Source of the DNA: Scenedesmus sp. PABB004
Lineage: Eukaryota
NCBI GenBank assembly: GCA_014905635.1
Contig: JABVCE010000020.1
Location: 124,001 to 188,000 of the forward strand
DNA length: 64,000 nucleotides
Reading direction: 5' to 3'
Position 1 is the first letter of the stretch. Every line of letters begins with the position of its first letter. Below are positions 817 to 61,934 of the stretch, one piece after another. Under the pieces are notes generated by a model. The model was given only the letters and a program-made list of their open reading frames with translations, did not search any database and was not told the origin of the DNA. The position numbers and the translations under genes were made by a program.

Positions 817-2952
817 ATGCGGGCCGCCGCGGCGCTCTGGATTCTCGTGGCGCTGCTGGTCGCTCTGGGCGCCGCGGCGCAGAGCAGCCCGGCGCCGGCA
901 GCAGCGCGCGCCGCGGGCGCCGCGGCGCCGGCAGCAGCGCGCGCCGCTCGCGCCGCGGCGCCGGCGGCAGCGGGCGCCCCGGCGCCGGCAGCAGCGGGTT
1001 CGGCGGCGCCGGCAGCTCCGCCAGCAGCGAGCTCCGCCAGCAGCAAGCCGGCGCCGTCGGCCAAGCGCTCCTTCGCCCTCCCTCTCCGAACGGCGGGTCG
1101 CTGGATCGTCGACGCTAAAGGAGAGCGGGTGCGCCTCAAGTGCTCCTCTTGGAGCGGCGCGCAGGTAGGTTGGGATGGTCGTGCGCTGGCGGCGGCCGGC
1201 TGCGCGCGCGGCGGCTCGCTGCGGCCAGCCACCCGGCGCCGCCGCCGAATGGCGCCGCCGCCGCCTGTCCAGGAGCGCTGGTACGTCCCGAGCGGCCTCT
1301 GGGCGGTGCAGCGCGACGTCGTGCCCGCGCTCCTCCGGTCTGCGGGCTTCAACTGCGTGCGGCTGGTCTGGTCCCTCGAGATGGCGCTCGGCCGCGCCAA
1401 CGGCTCCGCCGCGGTCGTGCCGCCCGCCGCGGTCGCGGCCAACCCCGACCTGGTCGGCAAGCCGCCGCTGGCGGTGCTGGACGCGGTCATCGCCGCCATA
1501 GCGCGTGCGGGGCTGCTGGTGGTGCTCGACAACCACTCGTCCGACGCGATGTGGTGCGGCGGCGGCGGCGGCGGCGCTGTGCGGGGCGCGGGGCGCGGCC
1601 GAGCGGCCGGGCGGCGGGCGGCGGCTGGGCCCCTGACCGGCGCGGGGCGCGCCGCCCAACACGCAGGTGCTGCGGGCTGACCGACGGGAACGGCCTGTGG
1701 TACACGGACGCGTGGAGCGAGGCGCGCTGGCTGGAGGGCTGGGGCCTCATGGCGCGGCGCTACGCGCGCGTACAGGCTGTGATCGGCGTCGGCCTGCGCA
1801 ACGAGCCGCGGCCGACGTTCCGGCGCGGCGCGCTCGTGATGCCGACCTGGGGCGGCGCCGACCCCGCGACCGACTACGCGCTCGCGTTTGAAAAGGCCGC
1901 CGCCGCGGTGTTGGCCGTGCGCCCCGGCACGCTCGTGTTTGCCCAGGGCATGCTCGGCGGCCGCGACCTGCGCGGCGCGCGCCGCCGGCCGCTCGTGCTG
2001 CGCGCGGGCTGGCCGGACGGGCCGGTCGTGACGAACGCGACCGTGTACGAGGTGCGCGCCGCGCCGCGCCGCGCGCTCTGTGCACGCCCCGCGCAGGCCG
2101 CTCGCGCAGGCGGGCCGCCGCGCACCGCTTGAACGCGCTCGCGCCCTCACCCGCGCACCCCCCCCCCTCCCCCCTCCCTCTCCCCCGGGGCGGCACAGGT
2201 CCACGAGTATCCTTTCCTCTGGTGCGGCAGGCGGGCGGGCGGGCGGGCGGGCGGGCCCTCGCTGAGCGTGCTGCCCCACCGCACCCACCGCCCCCGCCGC
2301 CGCGCGCGCCGCGCCGCACTCGCTGCACCCACCGCGCCGCCGCCGTGCTCGCGCTCGCGACGACCGCCGCCACCGCCGCCGCTGCAGGGGCAGCTTTGAT
2401 TTCACTGACTATGCCTCCTACGCGCGCCGCCTGGACGAGGCGTGGGGCTACCTGCTGTCGAGCGGCGCCGCGCCGGTCTGGCTCGGTGCGCGCGGCCGCG
2501 CGCGCGCGCCCCGGCGGCGGGGCGCCGGCGGCAGCTGGGCCCGACGCCCGCGCCCGCCCCCGCGCCGGCCGCGCGCCCGCCCGCCCGCCCACCTGCGCGC
2601 CGCGCGCCAGGGGAATTCGGCACCGAGCACACCGCCGCTGGCCTGGCCAAGCCCTGGTGGCGCGCGCTCACGCGGTGCGGCGCGCCGGCGCGCGTGGCCT
2701 CGCTGCTGCGCGCGGGCGGTCGGCCCCGCGCGCCCGAGCTCACCGCCCCGCCACCGCCACCGCCACCGCCGCCGCCTCCGCCGGCGCAGCTACATAAAGG
2801 AGCGCTCGCTCGATTGGGCTTACTGGCCGCTGGATGGGCAACAGGGCCCGAGCCGGGCCTGGCGGGCGGAGGAGACATACGGGCTGCTCAACACGACCTG
2901 GAACGGCTGGGCGAGCGCGGCGCTGCTCGCGGAGCTGCAGGCGCTCATGTGA
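817..2952 (+). CDS. Secreted glycoside hydrolase family 5 (cellulase-like), multi-exon
   Basis: Signal peptide MRAAAALWILVALLVALGAAA, Ala/Pro linker, LRTAGRWIVDAKGERVRL, GFNCVRL, VVLDNH, catalytic LRNEPR, VHEY, VWL|GEFG nucleophile, DWAYWPLDG, ETYGLL; stop at 2950-2952. Confidence 0.9.
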
Positions 2953-5406: not shown

Positions 5407-6205
5407 GGATGCCGCAGCCTTGGCCGGCCTCTCGCGGAGCGTGGGGGCGCCTCTGAGCCTCCGGCTTGCCGCGAGAGAGATCACTTTGATGTATGGTGTG
5501 TTTTGAACGCGCGTGGATGGGTTGGAAGGCGCTCGGCGAGGCGGTGGACCGCCTACTGCAGCTTGCTGTTTTTCTGCCTTGCGCGGGCAGCAGCGCAGCG
5601 CTGATTCGGGGCGCTGAACCTCTCCTATCCGTGATTCACGAGGTCTTCGCGCGTTTAAGGCTGCGTGCACGGCCCGGCGACGACTTGACTGCACGCCTCA
5701 GCGCGCCTCAGCGCCGGCAGCCCCCGCGCCGTCCGCCCACCGACAGTGGCGCCACAGGCGCGCCGCTGCTTCCGCCGCAGGGAGGAGCACTTAAGCGCTC
5801 GCGCGAGAGGCCCTCCCTGGGGCAGCTCCACACGCGCGCGCCCTCACGCGTGCCTCTGGCGCGCCGCCGACCAGCCCCCATACGCACAGTCCTGCCGCCT
5901 GCGACCGCAACCGCTCATCGTTGCTGGCACCACACCACCCGTGTGCACAGCCCAGCGCAGTGCCGCCGCGCACGTCAGTCTTGCAGGCACCGCGCGCGAG
6001 CGCACGCGCTTTGGGTTCCAGTCCAGCCCCAATCCCACGCCGCTGCCCTGTGTGCAGTGCAGTGCCGCCGTGCGCCAGGCCCGCCGCCGTGGTTTGCAGT
6101 GGTCGCCGCGCTTGCGTGAGTGCTGTGTGTGTGCAAGTGCGACCCTTGCCGGTGTGCTGGATCCCAGCGCTTGTCCCCCCAAGTGCACTCCCATGGCCGC
6201 AGCGC

Positions 6206-8982
6206 TCATGCCGCGCACAGGCCCGTGATGTTGGTGTTGCGCAGCGGGTGCGGTTCCAGCGCCGCGCCGCTCTCCAGCTCGCTGATCGGCACCCAACTCG
6301 TGCAGCCCCCAGGCTCCTCGCACACGCGCGGGTGCACCAGCACCTCCGTGCCGCGCTCGAGCCACGCGCGCGGCAGGCAGCCCGAGAGCCGCGGGTTGTC
6401 GCTGATGCCCAGGTTATTGAGCGGCATTGCCGCCCACTCTGCCGCTGGAAACTCACCCCGCAGGTCGCAGTAGCTCACATCCAGAGCACGCAGGCGCATG
6501 CCGCTCCACTCGGGCGGCAGCGTGGCGCCGAGCGGGTTGCCGGTGAGGTTGAGGCCGTTCAGTGTCGCCGACCAGGTGCCCCACTCGGGCGGCAGCGGGC
6601 CGCAGAGCTGGTTGTCGGCGAGATTGAGCCAGATGTATCCCGAGCAGCCTGGTGGCAGCAGGTGTGGATTTGGCGCTTAGTCAGGCAACCAGCCGGGCCT
6701 GACAGTAGCGCGCCGCCCGCCCAGCCGCCAGCAGCGGCAGCATGAGCGCACGTGGGCTGCCAGCAGCCCACCTTGACCGACATCCCAGCGTGCCCAGGCG
6801 GCCGGCAGCGTGGAGGTGAGGGCGTTGCCAGAGAGGTCGATCTTGCCAGCCCAGCCCCCTGGCGCCTCGGGCAGCGGGCCAGTGAGCTGGTTGTGGGCGA
6901 GGTTGAGCGCGCGTCCGCAAAGCCGAGGTGTGCTGCCAGCCGCCCACCCCGCCCAGCCGTCGATGGGGCCCGTCAGCTGCGGGCGGCGCGGGGCGGGTCG
7001 CACCGCAGGTCGGTCTGCGTCCGCGTGCGCCGTGCCGCCGCCTTGCCACCGCTGCCAGGCGACGCAGCGCACCTGGTTGTGGCTGAGGTCCAGGACCTTG
7101 ACATTGTTCATGAACACCCTGGGCGGCAGCGACCCCGACAGCGCGTTGTTTTGCAGGTACACAGAGCTCAGCGCTGCCATGCCGGCCCAGGCCTCGGGGA
7201 CTGCGCCGCTCAAGCTGTTGCTTGACAGGTCCAGCGTCGTGAGGTTGGCCATGCCGGCGCCCCAGGCGCTGGGCAGCGAGCCGGTCAGCACCTGGCCATG
7301 GAGGTCCAGCGACTGCAGCACGGTGAGCGCGCCCCACGACGCCGGCAGCGTCCCGCCGATGTGGTGCGCAGGGTCTTGAGAAACGCGCAGCTTGCGCAGC
7401 ACGGGCAGCGCGCCGGGTGCCAGGTCGTCGGCCAGGGAGGTGAAGCGGGCGTTGACGATTGTCACGCGGTCCACACGCGGCGGCAGCGCCGCCAGCGACA
7501 GCCGGCCAGTCAGACCCAGGCCGGAGAGGTCCAGCGTCTTGAGGCGCGCCATGCCGTGCCAGTCGGGCAGGGGCGCGTCGGCCGAAGAGAGCAGCAGCTG
7601 CAGGGCCAGCGCCTCCAAAGCGGTGAGTGCGCCCCACGTCGCCGGCAGCACGCCCCCGACGGGGAACGCACGGTCTTGCCGGACGCGCAGCGAGCGCAGC
7701 GCGGGCAGCGCGCCCGGTGCAAGGTCGTCGGCCAGCGAGGTGAAGCGGCAGTCGGCAAACGACACAGTCTCCACGCTCGACGGCAGCGCCGCCAGGGACA
7801 GTGCGCCGGTCAGACCCAACTCAAAGAGCTCAAGCTTCTTGAGGCTCACCATGCCACGCCAGTCGGGCAGGGGCGCGTCCGGCGAGGAGATTGCCAGGCT
7901 CAGGGCCAACTCCTCCAGCGCGGTGAGCGCGCCCCAGGACGCCGGCAGCGTCCCGTCGATGGAGTGTGCAGGGTCTTGATAGACGCGCAGCAAGCGCAGC
8001 GCGGGCAGCGCGCCCCGCGCCACGTCGTCGGCCAGGGAGGCAAAGCGGGTGCCGGCAAAGAACACACGCTCCACGCTGGGTGGCAGCGCCGCCAGCGGGA
8101 GCGGGCCGGTCACGCCCACGTTCTGGAGCTCAAGCGTCTTCAGGCCGGTGAGGTTGCGCCACTCCGCAGGCCACGACGGGGCGCTCAAGATCACGTCTGT
8201 CGCTTGAATCGCCCCAAGGCTGGCTGCCTCCAGCCCAGGGCCGAGCTCGCCCCAGGCGCGGGGGAGGCGGCCTGTCGACGGTTGGCTGAAGTACACGGCG
8301 ATCGTCGTCACCACGCGCGGCGCGCGGCCAGAGCACCTCCCTGCCAGGTGCACGGCTCGGTGCCGGCGCGCCAAGACTTGACGATTGGCTCGTTGCGCTG
8401 CAGGCCCAGCTCCTCCAGGCCGCGGCGCAGAATGGCCCCCAGCGGGTCGTCGGGCGGGCTGAGGGTCTCGTTGCATGCGGCCGCGCTCTTGGCGCCAGGG
8501 CCGGGCGTTGTCGTCAGCGCAGGGCAGGTGTTGCAGGGCCTGATGCCGGCCCCCGGCTTGGAGTTTGCCCACGTGCCGGTCGGGCAGGGCTCGCAGGTGC
8601 CGCCCGCGAGCGCCAGGCCGTAGCCGGCCCGGCAGTCGCTGCAGGCCGCCGGCGACGTCGTGCCTTCATGGGCTGTGGTGCGGCCCTTTGGGCAGCCCCG
8701 ACACCTGGCGTCCGGCCCGCCGGGCGACCACGAGCCGCGCTTGCACAGCGCGCAGTCGCCCGCGCCGGCCGACACGCCGCTGCCGGGCAGGCACTCAGCC
8801 GCGGGCGTGGCACTAGCGACCAGCAGGCTGCGGGAGCCACTCCCATCCGCCAGCAGGCCGCGCCTGCTGGGCCCGCGCGCCGCCGCGCCGCCGGCCGGGG
8901 CGGCCGCGAGCAGCAGCGCCAGCGCCGCCGCCGCCAGTGCGAGCGCGTGCCGCGCCAGCGCGCGGCCGCTGCGGCTGGGCAT
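6206..8982 (-). pseudogene. LRR cassette copy 1: signal peptide + Cys-rich (GCC2/GCC3-like) repeats + plant-type LRRs; frameshifted
   Basis: MPSRSGRALARHALAL..., CxxCxxGxWS repeats, EPCTWQG then frame switch at ~8335-8340 into CSGRAPRVV; LxxLDLSxNxLxG repeats; two introns shared with the paralogues; ends LRNTNITGLCAA*. Confidence 0.8.
7330..8150 (-). repeat. About three tandem 300-bp units, each 100 aa (four LRRs)
   Basis: Aligned landmarks recur at exact 300-bp period: ggcagcgccgccag at ~7482/7782/8082; gtcgtcggccag at ~7424/7724/8024. Confidence 0.9.
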
Positions 8983-9689
8983 GACTGGCCGGGAGGCGGA
9001 GCGCGTGCGGGCGAGGCGTGCCGGCCGCCCAGGGCGCGCTGCGACAGCGGACTGCGCGGGGTTGGTCTCGTGCCCACGGGGCCGCGGCAGCGCGGCGGTG
9101 CTAGAGTGTAAGTGTGTCGTGCGATGGATTCGAGTGGATGAAATGGATCGAGACCGGCGGTGCGGCCTGGTCGAGCGGGGCGGAGGCTGGCGCGGAAGCG
9201 CCCCAGAAGCGGAGCGGAGCCGTGCGGGCACCTGCCCGGCTGGCAGCGCTGTTGGGAGTTTTGACGCACACAGCGGCCGCACGGGGTGTGCGGGCAGGCC
9301 GCGACGAGCGTCACCGCGCGCCGCCGCTGCTCGCGACCTCTTGCAGCACAGCGCAGCCGCGTCCCCCTGGGCCGCGGCATCCCATGGTTGGGTGGCATGA
9401 GGCCAGAAGCGCACCCGGGCGGGCACGCGCCGGCGCACTGCGCTGCGCGCTGCGCTGCGCCCTGTGCTCCGGCCCCACCCGCCAGACGCCGCCTTGCTGA
9501 TGGGAATAGTGCCCCTCCACACGAGGCTGCGCCGCCCCTGCAGCGTCGGGAACGTCCCTGCAGACGCTTGAGAGCACAGCGGCGCAAGCGCGCAGCGCAT
9601 GCGTGCGTGCGTTGAGGCAGCCAGGCCAGGCGCTGCCTTCCGCCGTTGCTCGACTGTCAGCGGCGCCGCAGCGCACACGCGCCACTTTG

Positions 9690-11150
9690 CGCAACCCAAG
9701 CTCGGTCCCGCATGCGCAGCAACCCACACACATGAGTTGCGGAAGGCCGGCCGGCAGCGCACGCGCGCCGCCAGCAGCGCACCCCCACCAGCCCCAGCCC
9801 CACCAGCAGGGCTGCTGCCTGCTCAGTCCGGCGCCAAACCTGGCGGCCGCGCCTCCCGCGCCCCCGTGTGTTGAAAGCTCCCCAAGCGCAGTCACACTGC
9901 CAATGCATATGCCCCCTCGCTGCGGCGCAGAGAGGCGGCCCAGTGCCAGTGCGCGCGCGCCCAACTTGATTCTGGTGCCCCCCGGTCGCGCCACACCGCC
10001 CGACCCCCACGCAAGCTGGCCAGCTCAATAAATCCAGCCGGGCGGTTTGCACACATTGGCGCGCTGAGCGCGTCGGCGGCCCGCGCGAGTCAGGCTCTCA
10101 AATCGCCCGGCGCCCCGGAGACGCGGCCGCAGCGCCGCCCACGCAGCAATGTCGGCGCGCCGGGCTGGGGGGCGCTGCGCACCAATGAGGCCGGTGCATG
10201 CGTGCGTGCGTGGAGGCGGGGCCAGGCAGCCGCCTCGGGTCAGCCATCAAATGGCAGCGCGCCGCGCCACGCAGACCCCTGCAAACCCCAGCTCAATCCC
10301 ACCAGCACTCTTGAATTGGTGAACGCCCACGCCGGCAGCGCGCGCAGCCAGCGCCGCCCCCGCAGCGTGGTGGACCCCCCAGCAGTTGCTTGAGCGCACA
10401 GCAGACGCCGCGCCGCGCCCAGCCCCCACCCTAGTCAGTGCATTGCAAACAGTGCAAAAGCGCACATGCAGTGCAGCGGCACCGCGCCGGCGCGCCGCGT
10501 CCCACACCACGTCACCGCCGCCACCACCAGCGCTGTGCATGCGCCGCAGCCTTGGCCAGCAAGACCGATCTTGGTTGGGGCGAGCCGCCCAGTAGCCGTG
10601 CAGAGCCGGCATGCCGCCGGCAGCGCTCCCCGCCTGTCATTGAACGACCAAGCACATCCGCAGCCGGCCGCGGCCACCGCCACCAGCCCCATTGAACGAC
10701 CAAGCACACCCGCAGCCGGCGGCACCCACACCGACCCCCGCCACGCCAGCGCGAGCTTCCTGTTCAGTTCGGCGGCCCGCACCAAGCTTGGCGGCCGCGC
10801 CTCACGCGCCCCACGCCGTGCGCTGCTCGAGCACGCAGCAACACGTCTTGAGCTTCCCCAAGCGCAGTCATGCTGCCACATGCGGCAAAAGCCCCTCCTC
10901 CCCCAAGCCCCAAGCGCAGTGAGGCGGCCCCGTGCCTGTGCGCGTGCAAATTCAAGCCTCGGCGCGCGCGACCAGCGAGCGACCCACGCTAGCAGCTCCT
11001 GACCACCCGGCGCGCCAGTGGCCGCCCGCCGCCCACGCAGCAGCGCCACCGGGGGGGTCCCAGCGCCTGCCGCGCGCGCACCGCCGATCGTCAAAAGTGC
11101 ACCGGGGGTGCCAACACGCGCACGCCCCTCGCACCGACCAGCGACGGCTG
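9690..11150. repeat. Non-coding flank of the LRR cassettes, homologous (inverted) to 52990-53850 and 60490-61720
   Basis: caccacgtcaccgccgccaccaccagcgctgtgcatgcgccgcagccttggccagc (~10505-10560) matches the reverse complement near 53290-53345 and 61495-61550; 9690-9855 matches 61185-61350. Confidence 0.85.
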
Positions 11151-11154
11151 CTGC

Positions 11155-13674
11155 TCAGGGCGGGCAAATGCCGGCGACTTGGGTGTTGCGCAGCGGGTCT
11201 GGGTCCAACACCTTGCCGCTCGCCAGCTCGCTCACATCTACCAGCATGCTGCAGGTGCAGTTGGGCTGATAGTACAGCAGCGTTGAGTAACGCTCGGCCC
11301 ACGCGCGCGGGAGGCAGCCGGAGAGGTCTGGGTTGTCGCTGATGCCCAGATCGTAGAGCGTCATCGGTGCCCACGCTGCAGTTGGAAACTCGCCGCCCAA
11401 ACCGCAAGATCTTACGTCCAGCATGCCCAGGCGCATGCCGCTCCACTCGGGCGGCAGTGTGGCATTGAGCGGGTTGCCGGTGAGGTTGAGGCCGTACAGC
11501 GTCGTCTGCGAGGGCGATGACCAGTTACCCCACTCGGGCGGCAGCGGGCCGCGGAGCTGGTTGCCGGCGAGGTTAAGCGTGAAGCCCGCATAGCATCCTG
11601 CGGCAGCAGGCGAGGCGGCCGTGGGCTGCGGCTGGGATCGCCAGCGCGCCACGCGCCCAACACGCAGCCGCTGCCGCGCAGCCGCTGCCAGAGCAGGGGT
11701 TGCCCACCCTGGCAGAGGGGCCAGTTTGCCCAGGCGGCGGGCAGCGTGGAGGTGAGGGCGTTGTCCGACAGGTCAATGAGGCCAGCCCTGCGCCCCGGCG
11801 CCTCGGGCAGCGGGCCGGTGAGCTGGTTGTGGGCAAGGTTGAGGGTGGGGAATTCAACCTGATAGCAGTTCATGACCGTCGCCCATCCCGCCCAGTCGCT
11901 GACGCGGCCCGTCAGCTGCGGGGCGGCAGCACCGCGGCAGGGGAGCGCACAGGTCGGTGTGCACATATGCCGTCCGCGGTCAGCGAAACCCGCATGGGCC
12001 TGCCCTGCAAGCAGCACCTGCAGCAGCGCGCGCCGCGCCGCACCGCCCAGCCAGACGCCGCACCTGATTGTAGCTGAGGTCCACGCCCGGCACGTTGCTC
12101 AGCGCCCTGGCGGGGAGCGACCCACTGAGCGCGTTGTGCGACAGGTCCAGTTGCCTGAGCGCCGCCAGGCCGCCGGCCCAGGCCTCGGGGATGGGGCCGC
12201 TGAGTTTGTTGTACGACAGGTCCAGCCGCCACTCAATGCTGGCCAGGCCGCCCCATGCATCGGGAAGGGGCCCCGTGATGGCGTTGTGCGACAGGTCCAG
12301 CGTCGTGAGCGCCGCCATGCCGTCGCCCCAGGCGGCAGGCAGGGGCCCCGTGAGCGCGTTGCCGCTCAGGTAAAGAGTGGTCAGCGCCGCCATGCCGTCG
12401 CCCCAGGCGGCAGGCAGGGGACCGCCGAGCGCGTTGCCGTTCAGGTGCAGCTCTTGGAGCGCCGCCAAGCCGGCCCACGCCTCGGGCAGCGGGCCGCTGA
12501 GCGCATTGGCGCTCAAGTCGAGAGTCGTGAGCGCCGCCATGCCGGACCACGAGGCGGGCAGCGGACCGGTCAGCGCCAGGTTTTTGAGGCCCAGCTTCTG
12601 CAGCGAGGAGAGCGCGCCCCACGACGCCGGCAGCGTCCCGCCGATGGGGTGCGCGGGGTCTTGCTGTATGGTCAGCTCCACCAGCGCGGGCAGCGCGCCC
12701 GGTGCCACGTCGTTGCCCAGGGAGGTGAAGCGGTTGTTCATAAGGTCCACGCGCTCCACGCTCGGCGGCAGCGCCGTCAGCGGCGGCGCGCCGGTCATGC
12801 CCACATTGCCGAGGGAGAGGCCCTTGAGGCCGGTGAGGTTGCGCCACTCCGCGGGCCACGACGGGTCAGCGAGGCCGCTCCCTGCCTTGGTTTGGCCGTT
12901 GATGGTGATGCTCAGCCCCTCTAGCCCGGCGCCGAGCTCGGCCCACGCGCGCGGCAAGCGGCCGGTGCCTGCAACAGCAACGCCGACCCATTTCACCACT
13001 CGCGGCGTGCTGTCTGTGCAGAACACACCTTGCCAGGTGCACGGGTCTGTGTCGGGGCGCCACGTTGTGAGGAAGTTGGTGCCGAGCTGTCCTGGGGCCA
13101 GCTCCAGCAGGCCGCGCAGCAGCGCTGACGCCACCGGGTCGTCGGGGAGGGCGAGGGTCACGTTGCACGCGGCGATGCTCTTGGCGCCGGGGCCTGACGT
13201 TGTCGTCAGCGGGGGGCACGCCCGGCAGGGCTTGATGCCCTGCCCCGGCTTGGCGGAGCGCCACATGCCGGGCGGGCAGGGCGCACAGCGCCTGGCCTGC
13301 ACGTGGGGATCGCGCCCGTAGCCGGCCCGGCAGTCGCCGCAGGCCCACTCTGCCTGTGCGCCCTCGCCGGCGGTGTTGTAGCCCTTTCGGCAGGCCTGGC
13401 ACTTGGCGCCCAGCCCGCCTGGCGACCAGGTGCCGCGCTTGCACGGCGCGCACTCGCCGCCGCCCGCCGACACGCCGTTGCCGGGCGTACAGTTGGCCGC
13501 AGGCTCAGCTGTGGTGGCCAGCAGGCCACGAGAACCACTCACATCCGCCAGCAGGCCGCGCCTGGGCCCGCGCGCCGCCGCGCCGCCGGCCGGGGCGGCC
13601 GCGAGCAGCAGCGCCAGCGCCGCCGCCAGTGCGAGCGCGTGCCGCGCCAGCGCGCGGCCGCTGGGGCTGGGCAT
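11155..13674 (-). CDS. LRR cassette copy 2: intact secreted Cys-rich + LRR protein (PGIP/RLP-ectodomain-like, no TM or kinase)
   Basis: Continuous frame MPSPSGRALARH...DPCTWQGVFC (LRRNT cap)...repeated LTGPLPAAWGDGMAALTTLDLSHN; introns after SYNQ| and LCQG|; ends LRNTQVAGICPP*. Confidence 0.9.
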
Positions 13675-14229
13675 GACTGGCTGGGAGGCGGGGCGAGTGC
13701 GGGCGGGGCCTGCCGACCGCCCAGGGCGCGCTGCGACAGCGGATTGCCCGGGTTGGTCCCGCGCGCACGGTGGGCCGCGGCAGCGCACCGCTGGGCCGGT
13801 GCGGAGGTGACGGTGCGATAGAGGCGGGGCGAACGGCGCGGCTGCGCAGCGGCGGTGCGGCCTGGTCGAGCGGGGAGGGGCTCGCAAGCCCGAGCAGGGC
13901 CCCGGAAGCAGGGCCTGGCGGGCGCGTCCGGGGCTGGCGGCGCGGCTGGGCGTCTGGGCCGACCCACCACTGCGAACGGAGGCGGCCGCAGCCGCACGCG
14001 CAGCACGGGCGCGGCGTCACCGCAGCGCCGCCGCTGCTCGCGGGCGCTCCGCGAGCCGCGCGCTGGCGCAGCGGCCAGGCTGGGTCCGTGTGGGTCGCGG
14101 CGCTGATTGTGCCATTTGCAGCCAGGAAGCACCCACCCAAACGAATGCACGCGCGCGTGGCGTCGCCGCCGCGAGCACACGGCGCGAGGTCGCGCAATGC
14201 CCCCCGCCCTCCCCCCGCCGGCCGCTGTC

Positions 14230-17200
14230 TCACGCGCGGCGCGTGACCGTGAGCGGCAGGCCGTTGGCGGGCTGCGGCCCGATGCGCTGCCGCCAGGTGG
14301 TGTCGGTGTCGGCGGTAAAGTCGTACCCCCGCGCCAGCAGCGCCAGGAAGACCTGCAGAGCCGCGCGGGCGGGCGGGCGGGCGGCACGGGGTGGGCGGCG
14401 CGCGCCGTGCTGCCGCGCCCGGCTGCTGCACCCGGCCCGCCGCCAGCCGCGCGCCCCCGCGCCCCGCCGCCGCCAGCCCCGCCCCGCGCGGGGCAGCGCG
14501 TGTGCGAGTGTGCGTGCGTGCGTGCCTTCATCTCTGCCGTTGCCACCGCCCACCGCCCGCCCGCCTGCCTTGGCGCCTGCCTGGCCCGCTAAACCCTGAG
14601 CCCCCTAACACCTGCCTTCATCTCTGCCATTGCCACTGCATAGCCGGCGCAGAAGCGCGGCCCGCCGCCAAACGGCATCTGCCACCCCGGCCGCCCGCCG
14701 TCGGGGCCCAGCATGCGCTCCGGCCGGAAGCGCCACGCGTCGCCGTCGGCGTTGCCGTCGCCGCCGCCGGGCCAGCGCGGGTCAGAGCGGCTCAGCAGCG
14801 CGAGGGGCAGGAACAGGAACGAGCCGGCGGCGATGCTGCGGCGGGGGGAGTGACGCGGCGCGCGACGCGGCGGCGGGGCGGCGGGGCGGCGGGGTCGGCG
14901 GGGCCGCGGGGCGGGGGCGGGGCGACGCAGCGCGGCGCGGCGCGTGGGGGCGGCTGCATGTGCGGCACGCGCAGGGCGGCCGCGTGCGCGGCGCGCGGAG
15001 CCAGCTGGCGCTGGCCGCGCACCGGTAGCCGCCAAGCTCGAAGTCGCGCGCCGCGCGGCGCGTGAGCGCGGGCACGACGGCGCGCAGGCGCAGCGACTCC
15101 CTGCGGCGCAGCGCGGCGGCGGCGGCTTGCGCTGGGCTCGCGCGCGGGGGGCCGGGGCCGCGTGCGCGCGCCCCAGAACCAGCGCTCTCCCTGCCACCCG
15201 CTGGCTCCCACCAACACACGCGCACACACACGCGCCCGCACCTGATGACCGCGTCCGCCCACTCCATGTCACGCAGCGCGCTGCCGCTCAGCGCGGCGCC
15301 GTGCCGCGCCGCCAGCGCCTCCTGCTCCGCGCGCAGCCGCGCCCACGCCTGCGGGCGCGCGGCGGCGCGCGGGCTGGGCGCCGGCGCGCCCGCGCGCGCG
15401 CGCGCGCGCGGCCGGCTGCTGCGCCTGCGCCTGCGCCTGCGGCTGCACCTGCTGCTGTGCCTGCTGCTGCTGCTGCTGCGCCTGCTGCTGCGCAGCACCT
15501 GCGGGTGGTCTGACAGGTTGGCGATGATGGCGGTCAGCGACGAGGCGGACGTGTCGTGCCCGCTGCGCGCAGGCGGGCAAAGGTAGGGAGGCGGCGCGGC
15601 GCGGCGGCGTGGAGCGGTGCGGCGGTGCGGCGGCGTGCTCCCGCCCTGCCGTCCCCCGACTTTGCCCCGCACCCCCATGCGCGCGCGCGCTCCAGCCCCC
15701 AGCCATCGCCCCCCCTCACGCGAGGAGGAGCAGCAGCAGGTTGTCAGTGATCTCCTCGTCAGTGAGCCTGGTGTGTGTGTTGGGGGGGAGGGGGGGGGGG
15801 GGTGAGAAACACAACGGGGGCGCAGGGTTTGGGGTTAAAGGGTTGACCCCTCAAGCTCGAGGGTTGAGGGCGACGGTGCGCGCGAGCAGGCGGCGCGGGC
15901 GCCCGCGGGCGCGCACGTGTTGCCGCCGTCATCGACCGCCGCCACCAGGCCGCCCAGGATGCCGCCCACGGGCTGGCGCCGCGCGAGCGCTGCGCGCGCG
16001 CCGTCGACCGCGGCCTGCGCGGCGCCGCACGCGGCGGCGTGGGCGGCGCGCCTGCGTGCGCGCCCGCGCGGCGCCGCACCCCCCCCTCCCCCCCCCACAC
16101 ACACACACACACGCACACACAGACACACGCACGCACGCGCGCACACAGAGCACCCTGCGTGCCTGCAGCCAGGCGATGAGGTCGCGCCGCGCCGCGAGCG
16201 CGCGGCCGTAGCGCGTGAAGGGCAGGCTGACGTAGGGGAAGGCCAGCAGGCCGTCCGCCCAGGCCAGGTACAGGCGGCGCAGGCGCTGCACCTCGGCGGC
16301 CGGCGGGTCGGCGCCGAGGATGACCTGGAGAGGCGCCGGGGGGGGGGGGGGGGGGGGCAGGTCAGAGCGGCGTCAGGGTTCAAGGTTACAACCGTGAGGT
16401 TTAGGCGCCGCCCGCCGCCACGCTCGGACGCCCGGCGTCGAGCGCCGCCGAGCCGCCGCGCCGCCGCGGGGAGGACACGCAACGGCCGGGCGGGCCCGCA
16501 GCCCTCCGCCCTCCCTCACCCGCCACCCCTGAAGCCTAAACCCTAAACCCTGCCCGCGCACTGAGCCCCGCACCGCAATGATGAAAACAAAGGTCATCTC
16601 CTTGAAGCCGTCCGCCGCGCCGACCGCGCGCCCGGCGCCGCCGGCGGCCGCCCAGGCGGCCAGGTAGCGCCCGAGGACCTACGCGGGCGTGTGTGTGTGT
16701 GTGGGGGGGGGGGGGGGGAGGGGGGGGGAGTCAGTCGGTCTGTCACCTCGCCGGCGGCCGGCGGTCCCGCGCCCCGCCGCCCCGCCGCCCCGCTGCGCCG
16801 CCGCCGCGCCGCCCCGCCGCCGCGCCGCCCTGCCGCCCCGCCCCGCCGCCCCGCCGCCCCGCCGGGCGCGCCTCAGTCATGCGCGGCAGCAGCGCCTCGA
16901 TCGCTGCGGGGCTGAACGCGGGCATGATGAGCCCCCGCAGGTAGGCGTGGCGCGGCTCCTGCACGTTGACCAGGCTCTGCCGCCCCAGCAGCGCGCTGAA
17001 GCCCCGCAGCGCGCCGACGCCCTGCGCGACGTCGCCGCCGTCCGCCTCGGCCGCCAGCACCGCGCGGGCGAGGTCTCCGTCGGAGATCTGGATCTGTGCG
17101 GGCAGCCCGAGCTGCGCCGGCGCCGAGACGAGCGCGTGCGGCTCGGCCGAGGCGCGCTGGAAGCGCTCCGGGTCGAGGATCTGGAGCGGGCGCTGCCACC

Positions 17201-17621: not shown

Positions 17622-17949
17622 CGCGACGCAGGGGCGGGCGCGCCCCTCACACGCCCGGCGGCTGGTGTGCTCGCTGCTCGCTGCTCGCAGCCCCCCGCGC
17701 TCCGCTGCCGGCGCGTGCGCCGGCGCTTGCGCCGGCAGCAGCGGCGTGTGTGGTGATGTAGGCGCGACAGGCGGGCGCCGCAGGTGAGCGGTGCGACCAC
17801 GGTGTCGGCCGCCGCCGGTACGGTCGGCGCCGCCGCAGCGAGCGCGTCGCGCCCGGCGGCGCCACTGAACCCCGAGTCGCGGTCGCCTTCGAGTGCTGCT
17901 GCCGCCCGCGGGTGCGTTGTGTAACAGGAGCGAGTTGCCGCAGCGAGCG

Positions 17950-18690
17950 GGGCTCAGCGCACCGCGCACACATTACCCGGGGGCCGTGCGCGCCGGCGCG
18001 GCATGCGTTTGGGTGGAGTAGTCGACCGGGGCAGGGGGGCAGGCGCGCGCGGGGGCCGTCCGCGTGGAGTGGCCGCCACGGCGTGGTTGTGAGGCAGAGA
18101 GGGAGCGTGGGTGTGTGCGCCGCGCGCCGGAGAGCCGTGCGCGCCGGCGCGGCGTGCGTTTGGGTGGAGTGGCTGACCGGGGCAGGCGCGCGCGGCCGCC
18201 GTTCACGGCTGCGCGGCCGCGGCGTGGTGCGTCGGCGCGAGGGTGCGTGGGTGGGTGCGCCATGCAACAGATGACTAGCAAGATGCCAACGGGTGTCTCC
18301 AAAGTGGGGGGCGGGCGGCACGTCAAGGTAGGTTTGACCAACCTTGGATCACAGGTGGCGGTGATGCGTGGGGGCCGTCATGCGACCATGGCTAGCGGCA
18401 GCGGGGCACCGCCAGGCCGGGGTGGCGGGCCCCGTGCCACTGCTATTGGTTCCGTGCGGGACGAAAGCTTCAACAAAGCAGTTGATTCCCCGTCGCGGGG
18501 CGCCGCGCCTGCGCAGGCGCGGCGCCCAGGGCACAGCCGCCAGCGGGAGAGCCTGCAGCTTGAAGGAGCCGTCAACTTCACAGCGCGGCCAGCCAGCCTG
18601 TCCGTGAGGCTTCTTCCACCAGGCAGTGCAGTGCATCCGAATGTGCGCGCGGGTCAGCGTCGGCAGCCCCCGCATGAAACGCCGCCGCAT
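17950..18690. repeat. Non-coding block, copy 1 (direct repeat of 23010-23782)
   Basis: Shared strings gccgtgcgcgccggcgcggcatgcgtttgggt, ggttccgtgcgggacgaaagcttcaacaaagcagttg, gtgcatccgaatgtgcgcgcgggtc, ccccgcatgaaacgccgcc. Confidence 0.9.
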
Positions 18691-22100: not shown

Positions 22101-22283
22101 GTACCGCCCCCGGTGGCGCACATGGCAGGTCAGGTAGGCCTGCTCCGGCTTTGCTGCGGCGGGATCCGCCGCCGCCGCGGGCTCTGCAGCGGTGACCTCC
22201 GCGGCCTGCAGCGGCACCCGCGCCGCTGCCGCGGCAACCAGGGCCGCGGCGAGCAGGACGAGGTGCAGGTGCAGCCTGGCCAT
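19173..22283 (-). CDS. Secreted multidomain protein: two Sushi/CCP-like modules, an EGF-like module and a C-terminal beta-propeller-like region
   Basis: Signal MARLHLHLVLLAAALVAAAAA; CSAVCKPGY...C...GKW...C; CSYTCDDG|Y...C...GMW...C; CGDNPC...C...YSCTCLDYYM|WDGTAKVC; repeats of the LNDLAIVDEDNAWAVG / LRGVAALDAQGAWAVG type. Confidence 0.75.
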
Positions 22284-22706
22284 GTCGACGCGTCTCTGAG
22301 GGCGACTTGGATGCGGCTGTCGTGAGAAGCGGGTTGGGTGTGTTCCGCGTCGCTGGTCGGAGGGCGCAATTAGGCGCTGCAGGGGCGGTCGAGACACCTT
22401 GAGTTTACAGTCTACAGAAAGCACGGGCGGCGGAAGCACGCCGGCCAGCGGGCAGCGCGGGGGGCGACGCGGGCGCGAGGGATGGCTCCGCCCCGGGCTC
22501 GGCTCTCGGGCTGAAGCCCCTGGCCCTGTCGGCGTGCCCGGAGACGCGTCGTGGGCCCATAGTGCTGTCGCGACCATCAACACGAGGTGGACGGCTGCAC
22601 AGGCGCGGCGACGGCCGCCGACCAGGCCCGGCCGCTGCTGGCCGCGCCGCGCGGTGCGCCCGGCCCAGGCGGCGCCGCGGGGTGCACCGTCACAGGGCGC
22701 GCGCCC

Positions 22707-22776
22707 TCACTCTCGCCCCCGCCAGGCCAGCAGCTCCAGCGCCTGCGCTTGCGTGGCCGCGTCGCCCGCCGCGAGC
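22707..22776 (-). pseudogene. Orphan duplicate of the last ~22 codons of HISN7
   Basis: Encodes LAAGDAATQAQALELLAWRGRE*, near-identical to 25624-25693; 22400-22700 also matches 25340-25620. Confidence 0.85.
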
Positions 22777-23009
22777 CGGGCGGCTAGCGCCCGCTAGCCG
22801 CGTGAGCCGCCACAAAAGGAGCGCACGGCGCTTTCGTGGTGCTGCCCCTGGCTGTTAACGCGCACAGCCCCGCTCCGCTGCTGGTGCGGCGTCGGCTGCG
22901 GTGGCGGCGGTGTGGTGGTCGCGGCGCGTGGCGGCGCGTTGCGGCGGGTGCGGTTTGCTGGGGCAGCTGGTGCTCTCGCCGGCCCGCAGCTGTTGCACGT
23001 GGCGTCAGG

Positions 23010-50542: not shown

Positions 50543-52952
50543 ATGCCCAGCCGCAGCGGCCACGCGCCGGCGCGGCACGCGCTCGCACTGGCGGCGGCGC
50601 TGGCGCTGTTGCTCGCGGCCGCCCCGGCCGGCGGCGCGGCGGCGCGCGGGCCACGGCGCGGCCTGCTGGCTGAGGGGGCCGGCTCGCGGGGCCTGCTGGC
50701 CGCCACCGCCGCGCCCGGCAAGGTGTGTAAGCCCGGCACCGGCGTGACGCTGGGCGCAGGCAAGCGCGGCACTTGGTGCCGGCCGTGCAAGGCCGGCACC
50801 TGGTCTGCCGGCGGCCTCAACGCCAAGTGCAAGGCCTGTCGGCAGGGCTACAAGACCGTTGGAGAGGGCGCGACGAGCTGCAGCGACTGCCGGGGCGGCT
50901 ACGGCCTGCCGTTGAACGCAACAGACGTCTGCGAGCCCTGCCCAGCCGGCACGTGGCGCGACGCCAAGCCGGGCGCGGGCATCCAGCCCTGCAACGCGTG
51001 CCCCATGCTGACGACGACAGCAGGCCCCGGCGCCAAGAGCGTCGCCGCCTGCAACCAGAGCCTGGCCCTCCCCGACGACCCGACCGCGTCGGCGCTCCTG
51101 CGCGGCGCGGCGGAGCTGGGCCCGCAGCCCAGTGATGGTGCGCTGGCGTCGTGGCGTCCCGACACCAACCCCTGCACCTGGCGAGGCGTGGTCTGCTCAG
51201 TGCCGCGCGTGGTTAATTGGCTCAACGTTGAACTCGCAGGGCCGTGCACCGGCCGCCTGCCGCGCGCGTGGGGCGAGCTCGGCCCCGGGCTGGAGTTGCT
51301 GGCCATCACTAGCTACGGCAGCGCCAGCCTCGCCGACTCGTCGTGGCCCGTGGAGTGGCGCAACCTCGCCGGCCTCAAGCGCATCCGGCTCGAAGGCATG
51401 GGCATGACCGGCGCGCTGTCGCTCGCGGCGCTGCCGCCCGAGTGTGGAGAGCGTGACGCTTATCAACAACCGCTTCACCTCCCTGGCCGACGACCTGGCG
51501 TCGGGCGCGCCCCCCGCGCTGGCTCAACTGGTCATCGTGCAAGATCCCCCTGCGCACCCCATCGGCGGGACGCTGCCGGCGTCGTGGGCCGCGCTCGCAA
51601 CGCTGCAGGCGCTAGTCCTCCGCAACCAGGCGCTGACCGGCCCGCTGCCTGCCGCTTGGGGCGCCGGCATGGTGACACTTAGAGAGCTGTACTTGGGCGG
51701 CAACGCGCTGACCGGCCCCCTGCCTGCCGCCTGGGGCGACGGCATGGCGGCGCTGATGTGGCTGGACCTGTCGCACAACGCCATCACGGGGCGCCTTCCC
51801 GATGCGTGGGCCGGCATGGCCATGGCCAACCTCACGTCGCTGGACCTGTCGTACAACAACCTGACCGGCCCCATCCCTGAGGCCTGGGCCGACGGCCTGG
51901 CGGCGCGGGGGGTGATGAAACCGCGGATGATGAAACTGGACCTGTCGCACAACGCGCTCAATGGGTCACTGCCCGCCAGGGCGCTGAGCAACGTGTCGGT
52001 CCTGGACCTCAGCTACAACCAGGTGCGGCGCCTGGCCGGGCGGCGGCGCGGCGCAGCAGCGCGCTGGCGTGGGCAGGCCCCGCGCGCGGGCTGCGCTGGC
52101 AGCTCACGGCAGGCTCGTGTGCGCACCGACCTGCGCCCTGCCATGCCGCGCTGCCGCCGCCCCGCAGCTGACGGGCCGCATCGACGGCTGGGCGGGATGG
52201 ACACCGGCTGTAAGCTGCTCCCTAAGCCTGAACCTCGCCCACAACCAGCTCACCGGCCCGCTGCCCGAGGCGCCGGGGGGCAGGGATGGCTTCATTGACC
52301 TGTCGTACAACGCCCTCACCTCCACGCTGCCGGCCGCCTGGGCACGCTGGGATGTCAATCAAGGTGGGCTGTCGCGCTGTGCTGTGACCACTGCCGCCGG
52401 TGCTCGAGCGCGGGGCATGCTGCTGGCAGGCCCAGCCGGACGCCATGTGACCATGGCGTCCGCCCCACATCTGCTGCCGCAGGCTGTGGCGTGGGCGTGA
52501 ACCTCAACCTCGCCGGCAACCAGCTCCGCGGCCCGCTGCCGCCCGAGTGGGGCGCCCGGTCGTCGCCCAAGCCGCACACGACGACGCTGTCCGGCCTCAA
52601 CCTCACTGGCAACCCGCTCGACGCCACGCTGCCGCCCGAGTGGGGCAACAGCACAAGCCTGAGGACGCTGGACGCGCGGTTCTGCGGCCTGCGGGGCTCG
52701 ATTCCAGCTTCAGCGTGGGCTCCGATGACGCTCTCTGCACTTGGCATCAGTGACAACCCAGACCTCTCTGGCTGCCTGCCCCGCGCATGGCTCAAGCTAA
52801 AGGGCTACACGTTGCTGCTGGTGCCACCGACCGGGTGCGAGCTGCCGGAGGGCTGCACCACGTCGGTGCCGCTGAGCGCGCTGGAGAGCGGCGCGCCGCT
52901 GGACCCGGACCCGCTGCACGGCACCAACGTTACTGGCATGTGCGCGCCGTAG
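50543..52952 (+). pseudogene. LRR cassette copy 3; +1 frameshift at ~51440
   Basis: Same signal, Cys-rich and LRR layout; ctgccgcccgagtgtggag has one extra base versus LPPSVE in the paralogues; ends HGTNVTGMCAP*. Confidence 0.8.
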
Positions 52953-57855: not shown

Positions 57856-60426
57856 ATGCCCAGCCGCAGCGGCCACGCGCTGGCGCGGCACGCGCTCGCA
57901 CTGGTGGCGGCGCTGGCGCTGCTGCTCGCGGCCGCCCCGGCCGGCGCCGCTGCGGCGCGCGGGCCCAGGCGCGGCCTGCTGGCGAATCAGCGTGGCTCCC
58001 GCGGCCTGCTGGCCTCCGCCGCTGCGCCCACCGTTACCTGTTCGCCCGGCAGCGGCGTGTCGGACGGCGGCGCCGGCGAGTGCGCGCCGTGCAAGCGCGG
58101 CACCTGGTCGGCGGGCGGGCCGGGCGCCAAGTGCCAGGCCTGCAAAAAGGGATATACCACGATCAAAGAGGGCTCTACATCATCGTGGCCTTGCCAGTAC
58201 TGCCAGGACGGCTACGGTCGGGGGGCGCCCGGCAAAGGCTGCGTTCTCTGCCCGACCGGCACATGGAGCGCCGCCACGCTGGGCTCGCGCATCAAGCCCT
58301 GCAACGCCTGCCCCTTGCTAACAACGACGGCAGGCCCCGGCGCCACGAGCGTGGCCGCGTGCAACGTGACCCTCGCCCTCCCCGACGACCCGCGCGCGTC
58401 GGCGCTGCTGCGTGGCCTGCTGGAGCTGGGCCCGCAGCTCGGCACTCCATACTTGGCACCCACCGACTGGCACCCCGGCACCGACCCGTGCACATGGCTG
58501 GGCGTGAGCTGCTCAAACAGCACGCCGCGCGTGGTCACAGGGGTCGACATCGCCCTCACAGGACCGCGGACCGGCCGCCTGCCGCGCGCGTGGGCCGAGC
58601 TCGGCCCCGGGCTGGGGGAGCTGAGCATCAACGTCCAAAACATCAGGGGCCAGAACTACAGCCAGGCTGGTCTCAGCAACGCGTCGTGGCCCGTGGAGTG
58701 GCGCAACCTCACCGGCCTCAAGAGCCTCTCCCTCGGCAACGTTGGCACGACCGGCCCGCTGTCGCTGGCGGCGCTGCCGCCGAGCGTGGAGAGCGTGTGG
58801 CTTTCTGACAATCGCTTCACCTCCCTGGCTGACGACGAGCCGGGCGCGCTGCCCCCGCTGTGTGGCCTTCTCGTCATCCAATACTCTGAGCTGACCTGCG
58901 CGTCGGTCAAGACTCTGCGCACCGCATCGGCGGGACGCTGCCGGCGTCGTGGGGCGCGCTCGATGCACTGCAGTCGCTCGACCTCCCCAGCCAAGCACTG
59001 ACCGGCCCGCTGCCCGGGGCGTGGGGCGGCATGGCGGCCCTCACCTCTCTCGACCTGTCGTACAACAACATCAGCGGCCCCCTGCCCGGGGCGTTGGGCG
59101 GCATGGCGGCGCTCACCACTCTTGATTTGCGCAACAACGCGCTCAGCGGCCCGCTTCCCGAGCCGTGGTCCGGCATGGCGGCGCTCCAAGATCTGCGCCT
59201 GAGCGGCAACGCCCTCGACGGTCCCCTGCCTGCCGCCTGGGGCGCCGGCATGGCGGCGCTCACGTTGCTGGACCTGTCGCACAACGCCATTATGGGGCCC
59301 CTTCCCGATGAGTGGGGCGGCCTGGCGAACCTCACATCAATGCAACTGTCGTACAACAACATCAGCGGCCCCATCCCTGACGCCTGGGCCGGCGGCCTGG
59401 CGGCGCTGCAAACTCTGCAGCTGTCGCATAATGCCTTCCATGGGTCACTGCCCGCCAGGGCGCTGAGCAACGTGCCGGTCCTGGACCTCAGCTACAATCA
59501 GGTGCGGCGCCTGCCTGGCTGGGCGGCGGCGCGGCGCAGCGGCGCGCTGGCGTGGGCAGGCCCCGCGCGCGGGCTGCGCTGGTCACGGCACGCTCGCGTG
59601 TGCACCGACCTGCCGCGGAACCGCCGCCCGCAGTTGACGGGCCGTATCAACGACTGGGCGGGGTGGATGCGGGTGGGGGTGGAGCATCAGTGGTGCTTGA
59701 GAGGGATGACATTCGATCCCACCCTCAACCTCACCCACAACCAGCTGACCGGCCCGCTGCCCGAGGCGTTGATCGGACGGTCTGGCGGCATCGACCTGTC
59801 GGACAACGCCCTCACCTCCACGCTGCCGGCGGCCTGGGCGCGTGGCGAAGGTGCGGACTGGCGGGCTGCCGCCGCTGGTGGTGTTCGAGCGACCGCCGCG
59901 GCTGCAAGCGCGGTACGCTGCAGGGGGCAGGCCCAGCCACATTGCATGACCGCGGCAAACTTGCCGCCGCCACCAGGCTGTGCCGAGGGCGTGAACCTTC
60001 ACCTGGCCAACAACCAGCTCCGCGGCCTTGCTGCCGCCCGAGTGGGGCGCCTGGTCGTTGCCCAAGCCGCAGACGACGACGCTGTCCGTCCTCAACCTCA
60101 CCGGCAACCCGCTCAACGCCACGCTGCCGCCCGAGTGGGGCAACATCACAAACATGTGGCCGCTGTATGCGAGGTCCTGCGGCCTGAGGGGCTCGATTCC
60201 AGCGGCGTGGGCGCCAATGCAGTTCATTGACCTGGGCATCAGCGACAACCCGGAGCTCTCCGGCTGCCTGCCGCGCGCGTGGCTCGACGGTGGCCTGACG
60301 CTGCTGTATTATCAGCCCAACTGCACCTGCACCATGAGCGTGCAGCTGAGCGAGCTGGCGAGCGGCAAGACGCTGGACCCGGACCCGCTGCGCAACACGC
60401 AAATCGTCGGCATTTGCCCTGTGTGA
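57856..60426 (+). pseudogene. LRR cassette copy 4; frameshifts at ~58895 and ~60028
   Basis: Frame switches from IQYSELT into LRVGQDSAHRIGGTLP; cgcggccttgctgccg has an extra base versus RGPLPP; ends LRNTQIVGICPV*. Confidence 0.8.
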
Positions 60427-60859
60427 GCGCCGCCGCTGCTCAGCGCGAAAAGCGTGCATGTTTTCGCACACCCGGCACGCTTGTGCCGACCCGCGGTGCG
60501 CGCGCTGCAGGCGCCGGGACCCGTGACGATGCTGCGTGGACGGCAGGCGGCCAGCAGCGCGCCGCGTGGTCAGGAGCGCCTAGCGTGGGTCGCCCGCTGG
60601 TCGCGCGCGTTGAGGCTTGAACTTTCTTCGTGCACAGGCACTGGACCGCCTCACTGCGCTTGAGGCTTGCAGGAAGGGGTTTTGCCGCGTGTGGCAGCAT
60701 GACTGCGCTTAAGGCAGAAGCTCAAGACGTGCTGCTGCGCGTGCTCGTGCAGCGCACGGCGTGGGCCGCGTGGGGCGCGGCCCCCAGACCTGGCGCCGGC
60801 CGCCGGACTGAACAGGAAGCATGCGCTGCTGTGGCGGGGGGTTGGTGTGGGCGCCGCCG

Positions 60860-61053
60860 GCTGCGGATGTGCTTTGGTCGTTCAGTGGCAGGGGCTGGCG
60901 GGGGCGAGCGCCGCTGGCTGCGAATATGCTTGGTCGGTCAATGGCAGGGGCTGGTGGGGGCGGGCGCTGCTGGCTGCGGATGTGCTTGGTCGTTCAATGG
61001 CAGGGGCTGGTGGGGGCGGGCGCTGCTGGCTGCGGATGTGCTTGGTCGTTCAA
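60860..61053 (+). repeat. 56-57 bp minisatellite (about 3.5 units) in the LRR downstream flank
   Basis: gctgcggatgtgcttggtcgttcaatggcaggggctggtgggggcgggcgctgctg; units start at 60860, 60917, 60973, 61029. Confidence 0.9.
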
Positions 61054-61934
61054 CGCCAGCGGGGAAGCACTGCCGGCAGCATGCCGAGTCTGCGCGGCTG
61101 GGCAGCTCGCTGGGCAGCTCGCCAAACCAAGGTGGTTGGGGCGGCCGGGGCGGCTGTGCCCGGCTGATTTAACTCAAGGCGGGCGTGAGGCGCGGCCGCT
61201 ACGTTTGGCGCGGACCGCCGGACTGAACATGCAGCATGCCCTTCTGGTGGGGGCTGGTGGGCGCCGCTGGCGCGCGTGCGCTGCCGCTCGGCCTTCAGCA
61301 ACGCATGTGGTGTGGGGGTCGGTGCGCGTGCGGGACCGAGCTTGGGTTGCACGAAGTTCAATGGGGCTGGTGGGGGTGGCCGCGGCCGGATGCAGATGTG
61401 CTTGGTCGTTCAATGACAGGCGGGAAGCGCTGCCGGCGGCATGCCGGCTCTGCACGGCTGCTGGGCGGCTCGTCCCAACCATGGTCGGGGCGGCTGGCCA
61501 GGGCTGCGGCGCGTGCGCGCGCTGGTGGGTGGTGGCGGCGGTGACGTGGTGCGGGGGACGCGGCTCGCAGGCGCGGCGCCGCTGTGTTGCATGCGCGCGG
61601 GGGCACCGGATGCACTGGCCTTGGACGGGGCGGGCTCGGCGCGGCGTCTGCTGCGCGCGCAAGCGACTGCTGGGGGGTCCACCGCGCGCGCGCTGCGCGG
61701 GCTGCATCGCGGCGCCTGGACCGCGGAGTGCCGCCGGCGGCGCACGCTCCACCGCCCGCGCGCAAGCGCCGCCCTCCCGTCGCCCAGCACCAGCGCCGTG
61801 CGCCAAACCCCGCGCACTGGCGAGGAGCCGGCGCGTCGCCGCCAGCAGCGGCGCCGGCACGTCGCGCCCCGCAGCCGCCTGCCGCGCCGCTGCGGGCCGC
61901 GCGGCCGCTGCATGGCGACCTCCCGGGAGCGCTG

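Follow-up and report, generated by a model that had tools for sequence, protein, structure and literature searches.

Segments with incompatible histories in a 17-copy family of probably secreted leucine-rich-repeat genes of a green alga, Scenedesmus

The tomato Cf-4/Cf-9 (Hcr9) cluster is reportedly a patchwork of exchanged sequence, as Parniske et al. are said to have found in 1997, and receptor-like proteins of the Cf type end in a C-terminal transmembrane helix with a short cytoplasmic tail. One account describes Cf-4/Cf-9 as a five-gene locus (10.1101/2023.08.27.554972). For the PSA genes on chromosome 12 of Leishmania, chimeric genes, variable numbers of leucine-rich repeats (LRRs) and both intra- and intergenic recombination are reported (PMC2584048), and the description of Arabidopsis RPP8 includes conversion between genes, a distant paralogue among them (PMC6771003). 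Brown-algal ROCO LRR genes are presented as a repertoire diversified by shuffling and as proposed immune receptors (PMC11378527), and green algae are characterized as having few known immune receptors, intracellular ones being meant (PMC13315243).

Land plants and Leishmania provide ample documented examples of LRR exchange between paralogues, so the process itself is a known one. The case described here is modestly new: a 17-copy, probably secreted LRR family in a chlorophyte, in which the C-terminal cap appears to have been exchanged repeatedly at a single structural boundary. In the main texts of the open-access literature, we found no chlorophyte family of such secreted mosaic LRR genes.

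The family and its setting

The window, the whole stretch of 64,000 nucleotides analysed here, belongs to contig C14 of a 40-Mb assembly in 80 contigs (G000), with a GC content of about 77% and short GT-AG introns. Self-comparison of this 64-kb window uncovered four related LRR genes, c1 and c2 on the minus strand and c3 and c4 on the plus strand, and three genome searches placed them in a family of 17 copies, 16 of which lie on C14 and one (h327) on C25. The C14 copies span 37-406 kb (about 370 kb) in both orientations, and copies outside the window are labelled by position, from g037 to g403, plus h327. Some are same-strand tandem neighbours (c1/c2, g197/g201 and g244/g249/g253), and long stretches without family copies lie between exchange partners on the contig. 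Homolog searches returned close relatives only under the Scenedesmus label; because each scored only about 8000 candidates, this scarcity is weak evidence of restriction. We regard the four genes, with the 13 others, as one lineage-restricted paralogous family whose LRR proteins, judged by sequence, are probably secreted.

Each gene has three exons, whose limits were taken from GT-AG sites conserved across copies. Exon 2 encodes two LRRs, and exon 3 encodes four LRRs followed by a cap some 50 residues long. In eight of the 17 copies exon 1 reads open from ATG to donor, and in the other nine it is broken, truncated or without an ATG; one of the four window copies (c2) is intact, and c1, c3 and c4 carry frameshifts. 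The parts of the window on which the argument turns are as follows.

c1, 8982-6206, minus strand: exon 1 8982-7073, exon 2 6976-6772, exon 3 6648-6206
c1 exon 1: frameshift near 8330; three LRR blocks of about 100 aa
c1 exon 1 end and intron 1, 6977..7147, minus strand: 91% to the distant g037, at most 73% to any other copy
c1/c3 exact run, 6779..6827, minus strand: 49 nt at the end of exon 2
Conserved block, 6337..6408, minus strand: encodes ISDNPxLSGCLPRAW and the next codons; the plant-type LRR match ends here
c1 cap, 6206..6365, minus strand: ancestral-type VHPRxCExPxGC; nearest copy g100
c2, 13674-11155, minus strand: exon 3 11597-11155; the sole window copy with three in-frame exons; about 750 aa
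c3, 50543..52952, plus strand: exon 3 52483-52952; +1 frameshift near 51440; mostly g201/c4-like, with a putatively foreign cap
c3 breakpoint, 52809..52821, plus strand: the best supported in the window
c4, 57856..60426, plus strand: exon 3 59977-60426; frame broken near 58860-58910 and near 60028
c4 exon 3: derived mid-exon insertion and derived YYQPNCxC cap
c4 3' flank, 60427..61660, plus strand: 56-bp tandem repeats

Exon 1 of c1 (7224-8145) is built of three tandem blocks of about 300 bp with four LRRs each, 76-79% alike and fewer in other copies, an arrangement pointing to putative intragenic unequal exchange.

A cap with the motif YYQPNCxC, accompanied by a 12-nt deletion, is present in four of the 17 copies (c2, c4, g201, g232), and a longer cap in the remaining 13, among them h327, the most divergent. 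A one-codon insertion in the middle of exon 3 is found in c3, c4, g188, g201, g232, g244 and g298, and all four combinations of cap type and insertion occur among the 17 copies. Pairwise identity in the family has a median of 70% and GC3 is 0.887, so that homoplasy is high.

Homologous stretches of the c4 3' flank lie 3' of at least eight other copies, and flank of this type belongs to the duplicated unit. Its reading as a genome-wide mobile element was rejected, 13 of 14 matches being on C14 and mostly next to family members. A match at G000:C14:222393-223281, with no LRR gene found alongside, is possibly the relic of a lost copy, and pieces of the 3' flank occur twice in the c2-c1 spacer (window 9400-10900), at 9684-9875 and 10344-10812, which suggests an old partial duplication. 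The 56-bp tandem repeat of the c4 flank runs to about four copies (window 60840-61060), and the c2 flank holds two copies of a 52-bp repeat (10638-10741).

Other local duplications pair 17949-18686 with 23008-23782 (83%) and 22202-22776 with 25043-25693 (82-93%); the members of the latter pair, on the minus strand, have similar signal-peptide-like starts, and a second small secreted family may sit between the LRR genes. A multi-exon gene at window 817-2951 also has a signal-peptide-like start, and its motifs recall what we take to be a GH5 glycoside hydrolase. Four public protein models of 1715-2177 aa, the four longest matched, combine a family LRR protein with unrelated domains; three are named HISN4, cypD and radA at their source, and the fourth is a hypothetical protein containing an AAA-type domain. 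They are probably gene-prediction fusions with neighbouring genes, and since these four longest models carry unrelated enzyme domains, the family is probably under-described. Three sequencing runs are listed as sharing words with the window, a small share each, and no RNA run is among those listed.

Partner switches along the genes

The sequence-only reading of this DNA had proposed that similarity partners change in the middle of exon 3, c1 with c2 and c3 with c4 giving way to c1 with c3 and c2 with c4. All the LRR-gene motifs it quoted are present, and the mid-exon switch is confirmed by permutation (P 0.0002; 0.0008 with adjacent sites merged). Exon 3 has 48 informative sites, 15 of which group c1+c2 against c3+c4 (type A), 21 c1+c3 against c2+c4 (type B) and 12 c1+c4 against c2+c3 (type C). 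In the 5'-to-3' order of the gene they read AAAABCAABAAAACAAAACCCCCCABCC/BBBBBBBBBBBBBBBCBBBC, the slash marking the best break, between 6351 and 6337. Beyond it, 18 of 20 sites are of type B; at least 19 of these last 20 are not of type A, and 19 of the 21 type-B sites lie at or past 6353. When a single tree with site-specific rates was simulated, the merged statistic (18.5 observed) was reached in 0 of 384 replicates (maximum 18.45), and the unmerged statistic (30.6) in at least one (maximum 31.0). Between the A and B tracts stand six consecutive type-C sites (6443-6389), missed in the first reading.

The same reading had paired c1 with c3 at the end of exon 2. The 49-nt exact run is there (about 6827-6779), with a single site private to the pair, and from these sites a short conversion tract is possible. 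Triplets drawn from the four window copies alone gave none at P<0.01 in exon 3, and two at 0.009-0.010 in the longer region, non-significant after correction for 24.

Across the family, no one tree holds along the whole alignment, and the trees of the LRR part and the cap reject each other. Our own PHI-type test on exon 3 of the 17 copies gave 0.714 against 0.811 +/- 0.011 in permuted data (P 0.0005). The LRR-part tree joins g188 and g232 at 100 and holds a clade of c3, c4, g188, g232, g244 and g201 at 95; the cap tree unites c2, c4, g201 and g232 at 100 and g188, g197, g249 and g253 at 89, and AU tests reject both ways (delta-lnL 185 and 118). Because any segment favours its own tree, we calibrated this conflict by simulation: the summed delta-lnL of 304 compares with a null mean of 16 and a maximum of 82 in 384 no-recombination simulations, which contain no indels or multi-base changes and average 36 informative sites against 48 observed, the split point of the tree test having been fixed after the data were seen. 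Segments of the family genes have incompatible histories.

In the exact triplet test, corrected significance was reached in 3 of 4080 triplets for exon 3, all with g188 as child, and in 1 of 4080 for the longer region, for g232 only; c3 had a raw P of 8e-4 and a corrected P of 1. MaxChi over 2040 triplets gave a best raw P of 5e-5, which was unable to pass correction because it is the permutation floor. Synonymous-only counts in exon 3, with too few sites, left one of eight triplets at raw P<0.05 (c3 P 0.067). The 5' alignment used 15 of the 17 copies (g037 and h327 left out), the codon set 16 (h327 left out), and the non-coding comparison 14 (g037, g403 and h327 left out).

Segmental conversion or crossover between paralogues, as first proposed, is supported as exchange, but the implied partners were only half right. 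The pairs c3+c4 and c2+c4 are real kin, whereas c1+c2 stands at background identity and c1+c3 shares mostly ancestral state. With polarity taken from the 13 further copies, the state that prevails among six basal copies, read as ancestral-like, is the one shared by c1 and c3 at 16 of 21 B sites; for c1 and c2 this is true at 9 of 15 A sites. In the LRR part, identity is 258/300 (86%) for c3-c4, and that of c1-c2 (229/285, 80%) is at the same level as the background pairs c1-c4 (225/282) and c2-c3 (238/297). In the cap, c2-c4 (117/146) and c1-c3 (122/158, 77%) compare with 64-68% across types. There g100 is closer to c1 (84%) and to c3 (80%) than c1 is to c3, c2 and c4 are each closer to g201, and c2 and c4 share the 12-nt deletion and the 3' UTR. 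Direct exchange between c1 and c3, or between c1 and c2, is ruled out as the cause of the switch by polarity and identities.

A single putative replacement of the c3 cap by a foreign one explains the switch among the four. The best match of this cap is 115/141, at most 82% to any copy. Against g201, c3 agrees at 63/67 just before 52809-52821, where a 6-nt insertion is held in common, and at 88/129 after it, and its triplet counts (g201:g100) run 60:21 in the LRR part, 13:28 in the cap and 33:11 in the UTR. Because c3 matches g201/c4 up to 52809 and drops thereafter, it appears to be a g201/c4-type gene with a foreign cap, and it is the best-supported candidate recombinant in the window. Private sites of c3 and g201 number 23, with 22 in one tract of the Cys-rich region. 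Outside the window, g188 (g232:g197, 54:5 in the LRR part and 7:36 in the cap) and g244 (g232:g100, 70:9 and 9:28) show, by the same counts, an apparent c3-like cap swap with other donors. The counts for c2 (g201:c1) are 24:29, then 37:6 and 46:5, and since it is g201-like only from the cap onward, c2 is possibly a recombinant as well. Among the switch points of exon 3, the five strongest (g188, g244, c3, g232 and c2) fall at c1-equivalent 6408-6337 and are not all independent, because g188 and g232 reflect a single event seen from two sides.

Introns, promoter and UTR also switch partners, which argues against protein convergence. The non-coding partners of c3 are c4 in intron 1 (115/124), g201 in intron 2 (80/105) and g197 in the UTR (99/135); those of g188 are g100 in the promoter (207/234), c3 in intron 1 (103/119), g232 in intron 2 (110/121) and c1 in the UTR (100/154). 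The 91% tract of c1 at 6977..7147 reaches 96-97% to g037 in its first windows, with g037 93 kb away. Of 43 sites private to g100 and g188, 40 lie in one 265-column upstream tract. These two genes lie 88 kb from each other and have in common a distinct promoter tract, about 270 bp ahead of their start codons, which suggests that regulatory DNA was swapped too.

Probable gene conversion and its alternatives

Ectopic gene conversion between dispersed paralogues is the most likely mechanism, with a probability of about 0.72. Homologous repair would take another copy as template, and the copied tracts, of about 50 to 900 bp, would be transferred one way and end in conserved framework blocks, the cap being replaced repeatedly right past the conserved LSGCLPRAW block. 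Most parsimoniously, the YYQPNCxC cap would have arisen once, in the ancestor of c2, c3, c4, g188, g201, g232 and g244, and the one-codon mid-exon insertion later, in all descendants of that ancestor except c2. The copies c3, g188 and g244 would then each have acquired an ancestral-type cap from different donors, the direction again resting on parsimony. Swaps at the boundary between LRRs and cap probably endure because they leave the fold undisturbed. Partners often face opposite ways and stand 44-93 kb from each other, an arrangement better suited to conversion than to crossover, which between copies so distant or inverted would delete or invert the interval.

A less probable origin, though a fair rival, is unequal crossover or template switching at the birth of each copy, possibly in a once-tandem array that was later dispersed and inverted. 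Such an origin is consistent with the same-strand tandem neighbours named above, with the variable number of exon-1 LRR blocks (three of about 100 aa in c1, one in c2) and with the partnership of c4 and c2, which holds from the cap through the UTR (triplet c3:c2, 13:35 and 12:35) as a single crossover predicts, but it sits poorly with up to five partner changes per copy, with partners in either orientation, and with the return of c3 away from g100 past its cap (33:11). The variable LRR block number itself probably stems from unequal crossover or chimeric duplication.

It is very unlikely that assembly created the mosaics by joining similar paralogues or haplotypes, since chimeric tracts would be expected near 100% and most tracts stand at 77-97%, the c3 cap at no more than 82%. 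The exception is g197, g249 and g253, which have exact runs of 141-216 nt in common; their intron 2 is nearly identical (112/114), a product of either the latest exchange or copies collapsed locally during assembly. The nine of 17 copies with a broken or incomplete exon 1 or no start codon may include sequence errors, and independent contigs from two environmental runs have four gap letters each across 8069-8363, the interval with the c1 frameshift, which may reflect related strains with an intact allele or an assembly error. An independent contig nonetheless covers c1 6190-6381 with two differences, and another covers c2 11799-12022 with none; among the matches listed for contigs against positions 5900-14300 of the window, none spans both the A tract and the B tract.

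A single tree with the pattern produced by convergence, GC-biased homoplasy and rate variation is equally hard to sustain and, for the cap swap, largely refuted: homoplasy is high at this GC3 and identity and may account for the small c1+c2 and exon-2 c1+c3 matches, the 30-nt c1-c2 run could recur because the LRRs of these genes often contain WxGM, and the synonymous-only tests are weak, but the simulations never came near the observed tree conflict, and partner switches appear also in shared indels and in intron, promoter and UTR tracts.

Architecture, selection and described systems

The intact copy, c2, has an N-terminus that is hydrophobic by eye, Cys-rich repeats (Ephrin_rec_like, E 8e-11), an LRRNT_2 match (E 8e-6) and plant-type LRRs. 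Pfam LRR matches in its exons 1 and 3 are to LRR_8, LRR_1 and LRRNT_2, and no kinase, NB-ARC, ROC or COR domain was found in these exons. In most copies the signal peptide is followed by RRGLL and RGLL/RSLL motifs (window 13521-13565 and equivalents), which presumably resemble subtilase processing sites. Repeats such as LTTLDLSHNAITGPLPDAWGGL satisfy the plant-specific (PS) LRR pattern, described as LxxLxLxxNxL then SGxIPxxLxxLxx in 23-25 residues (PMC4030839). The translated copies show no transmembrane or hydrophobic stretch at the end of exon 3, a further exon being possible; because no transmembrane segment is seen in the sequence, the family does not appear to belong with Cf-type receptor-like proteins.

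Among solved structures, the best sequence matches are the ectodomains of GSO1, MIK2, FLS2 and HSL1 (E 1e-46 to 1e-33) and PGIP (5e-10), and the match of an exon-3 profile to solved plant receptors extends mostly to about position 99, where the GCLPRA motif lies. An alignment-based model (pLDDT 87; 16 of 17 copies, c4 left out; the single-sequence fold gave pLDDT 32) has a helix at 100-104 and then cap strands, and would place the switch at the first strand past the last LRR helix. The best Foldseek matches are plant LRR proteins (PGIP and LRR-RK ectodomains), none at E<=0.001, and the ESM Atlas returned generic LRR clusters only.

Exposed LRR positions (xxLxLxx) are more variable than the framework. 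In the first four LRRs (15 of 17 copies), pN/pS is 1.31 (1.03-1.70) at exposed positions against 0.71 in the framework, and a codon model places omega best near 1.5, only 1.3 lnL units above omega = 1. For the LRRs of exons 2 and 3 (16 of 17 copies), exposed positions give pN/pS 1.09 (0.76-1.57) and omega of about 0.5-0.75; over both sets, the framework gives about 0.7 by counting and 0.35-0.5 by codon model; all these estimates include broken copies, which could raise the values. From its architecture, a secreted ligand-binding role seems the likeliest, and an immune role of the family is put forward as a hypothesis. We consider it possible, although rather unlikely, that the family is a chlorophyte secreted recognition repertoire (for parasites, viruses, bacteria or cell recognition) in which intact copies take up modules from one another, and from broken copies too, via a recurring LRR/cap junction, with exposed residues of the first LRRs under diversifying selection. 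Were that so, it would be an extracellular counterpart, in a unicellular alga, of plant resistance-gene clusters, and if the proteins bind foreign ligands, the locus would provide a compact, testable system for studying how receptors diversify in a unicellular green alga.

Compared with known systems, the likeness to PGIP and to LRR-RKs (GSO1, MIK2, FLS2, HSL1) lies in the repeats only, since the algal cap and Cys-rich N-terminus have no counterpart in these matches and the alga shows no kinase. Brown-algal ROCO genes are described as having one LRR per exon and as ROC-COR GTPases, whereas most LRRs here are in one exon. Shuffling at introns of the ROCO type was not found, the genes having three exons and the switch lying about 300 nt inside exon 3. 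RPP8 encodes intracellular NLRs, and the evidence presented for it is from population alleles, whereas that for the algal family comes from one genome. The Leishmania PSA family, as published, resembles the algal one in its secreted or anchored LRR proteins, Cys-rich flanks and single expanded chromosomal subfamily; it differs in lineage and LRR class, and strong positive selection is reported for PSA. With Cf-4/Cf-9, as described, the algal family has in common a cluster of extracellular plant-type LRR paralogues that sequence exchange has diversified, and it differs in showing no transmembrane segment or cytoplasmic tail by sequence, in its N-terminal Cys-rich Ephrin_rec_like region and in its dispersal over 370 kb in both orientations.
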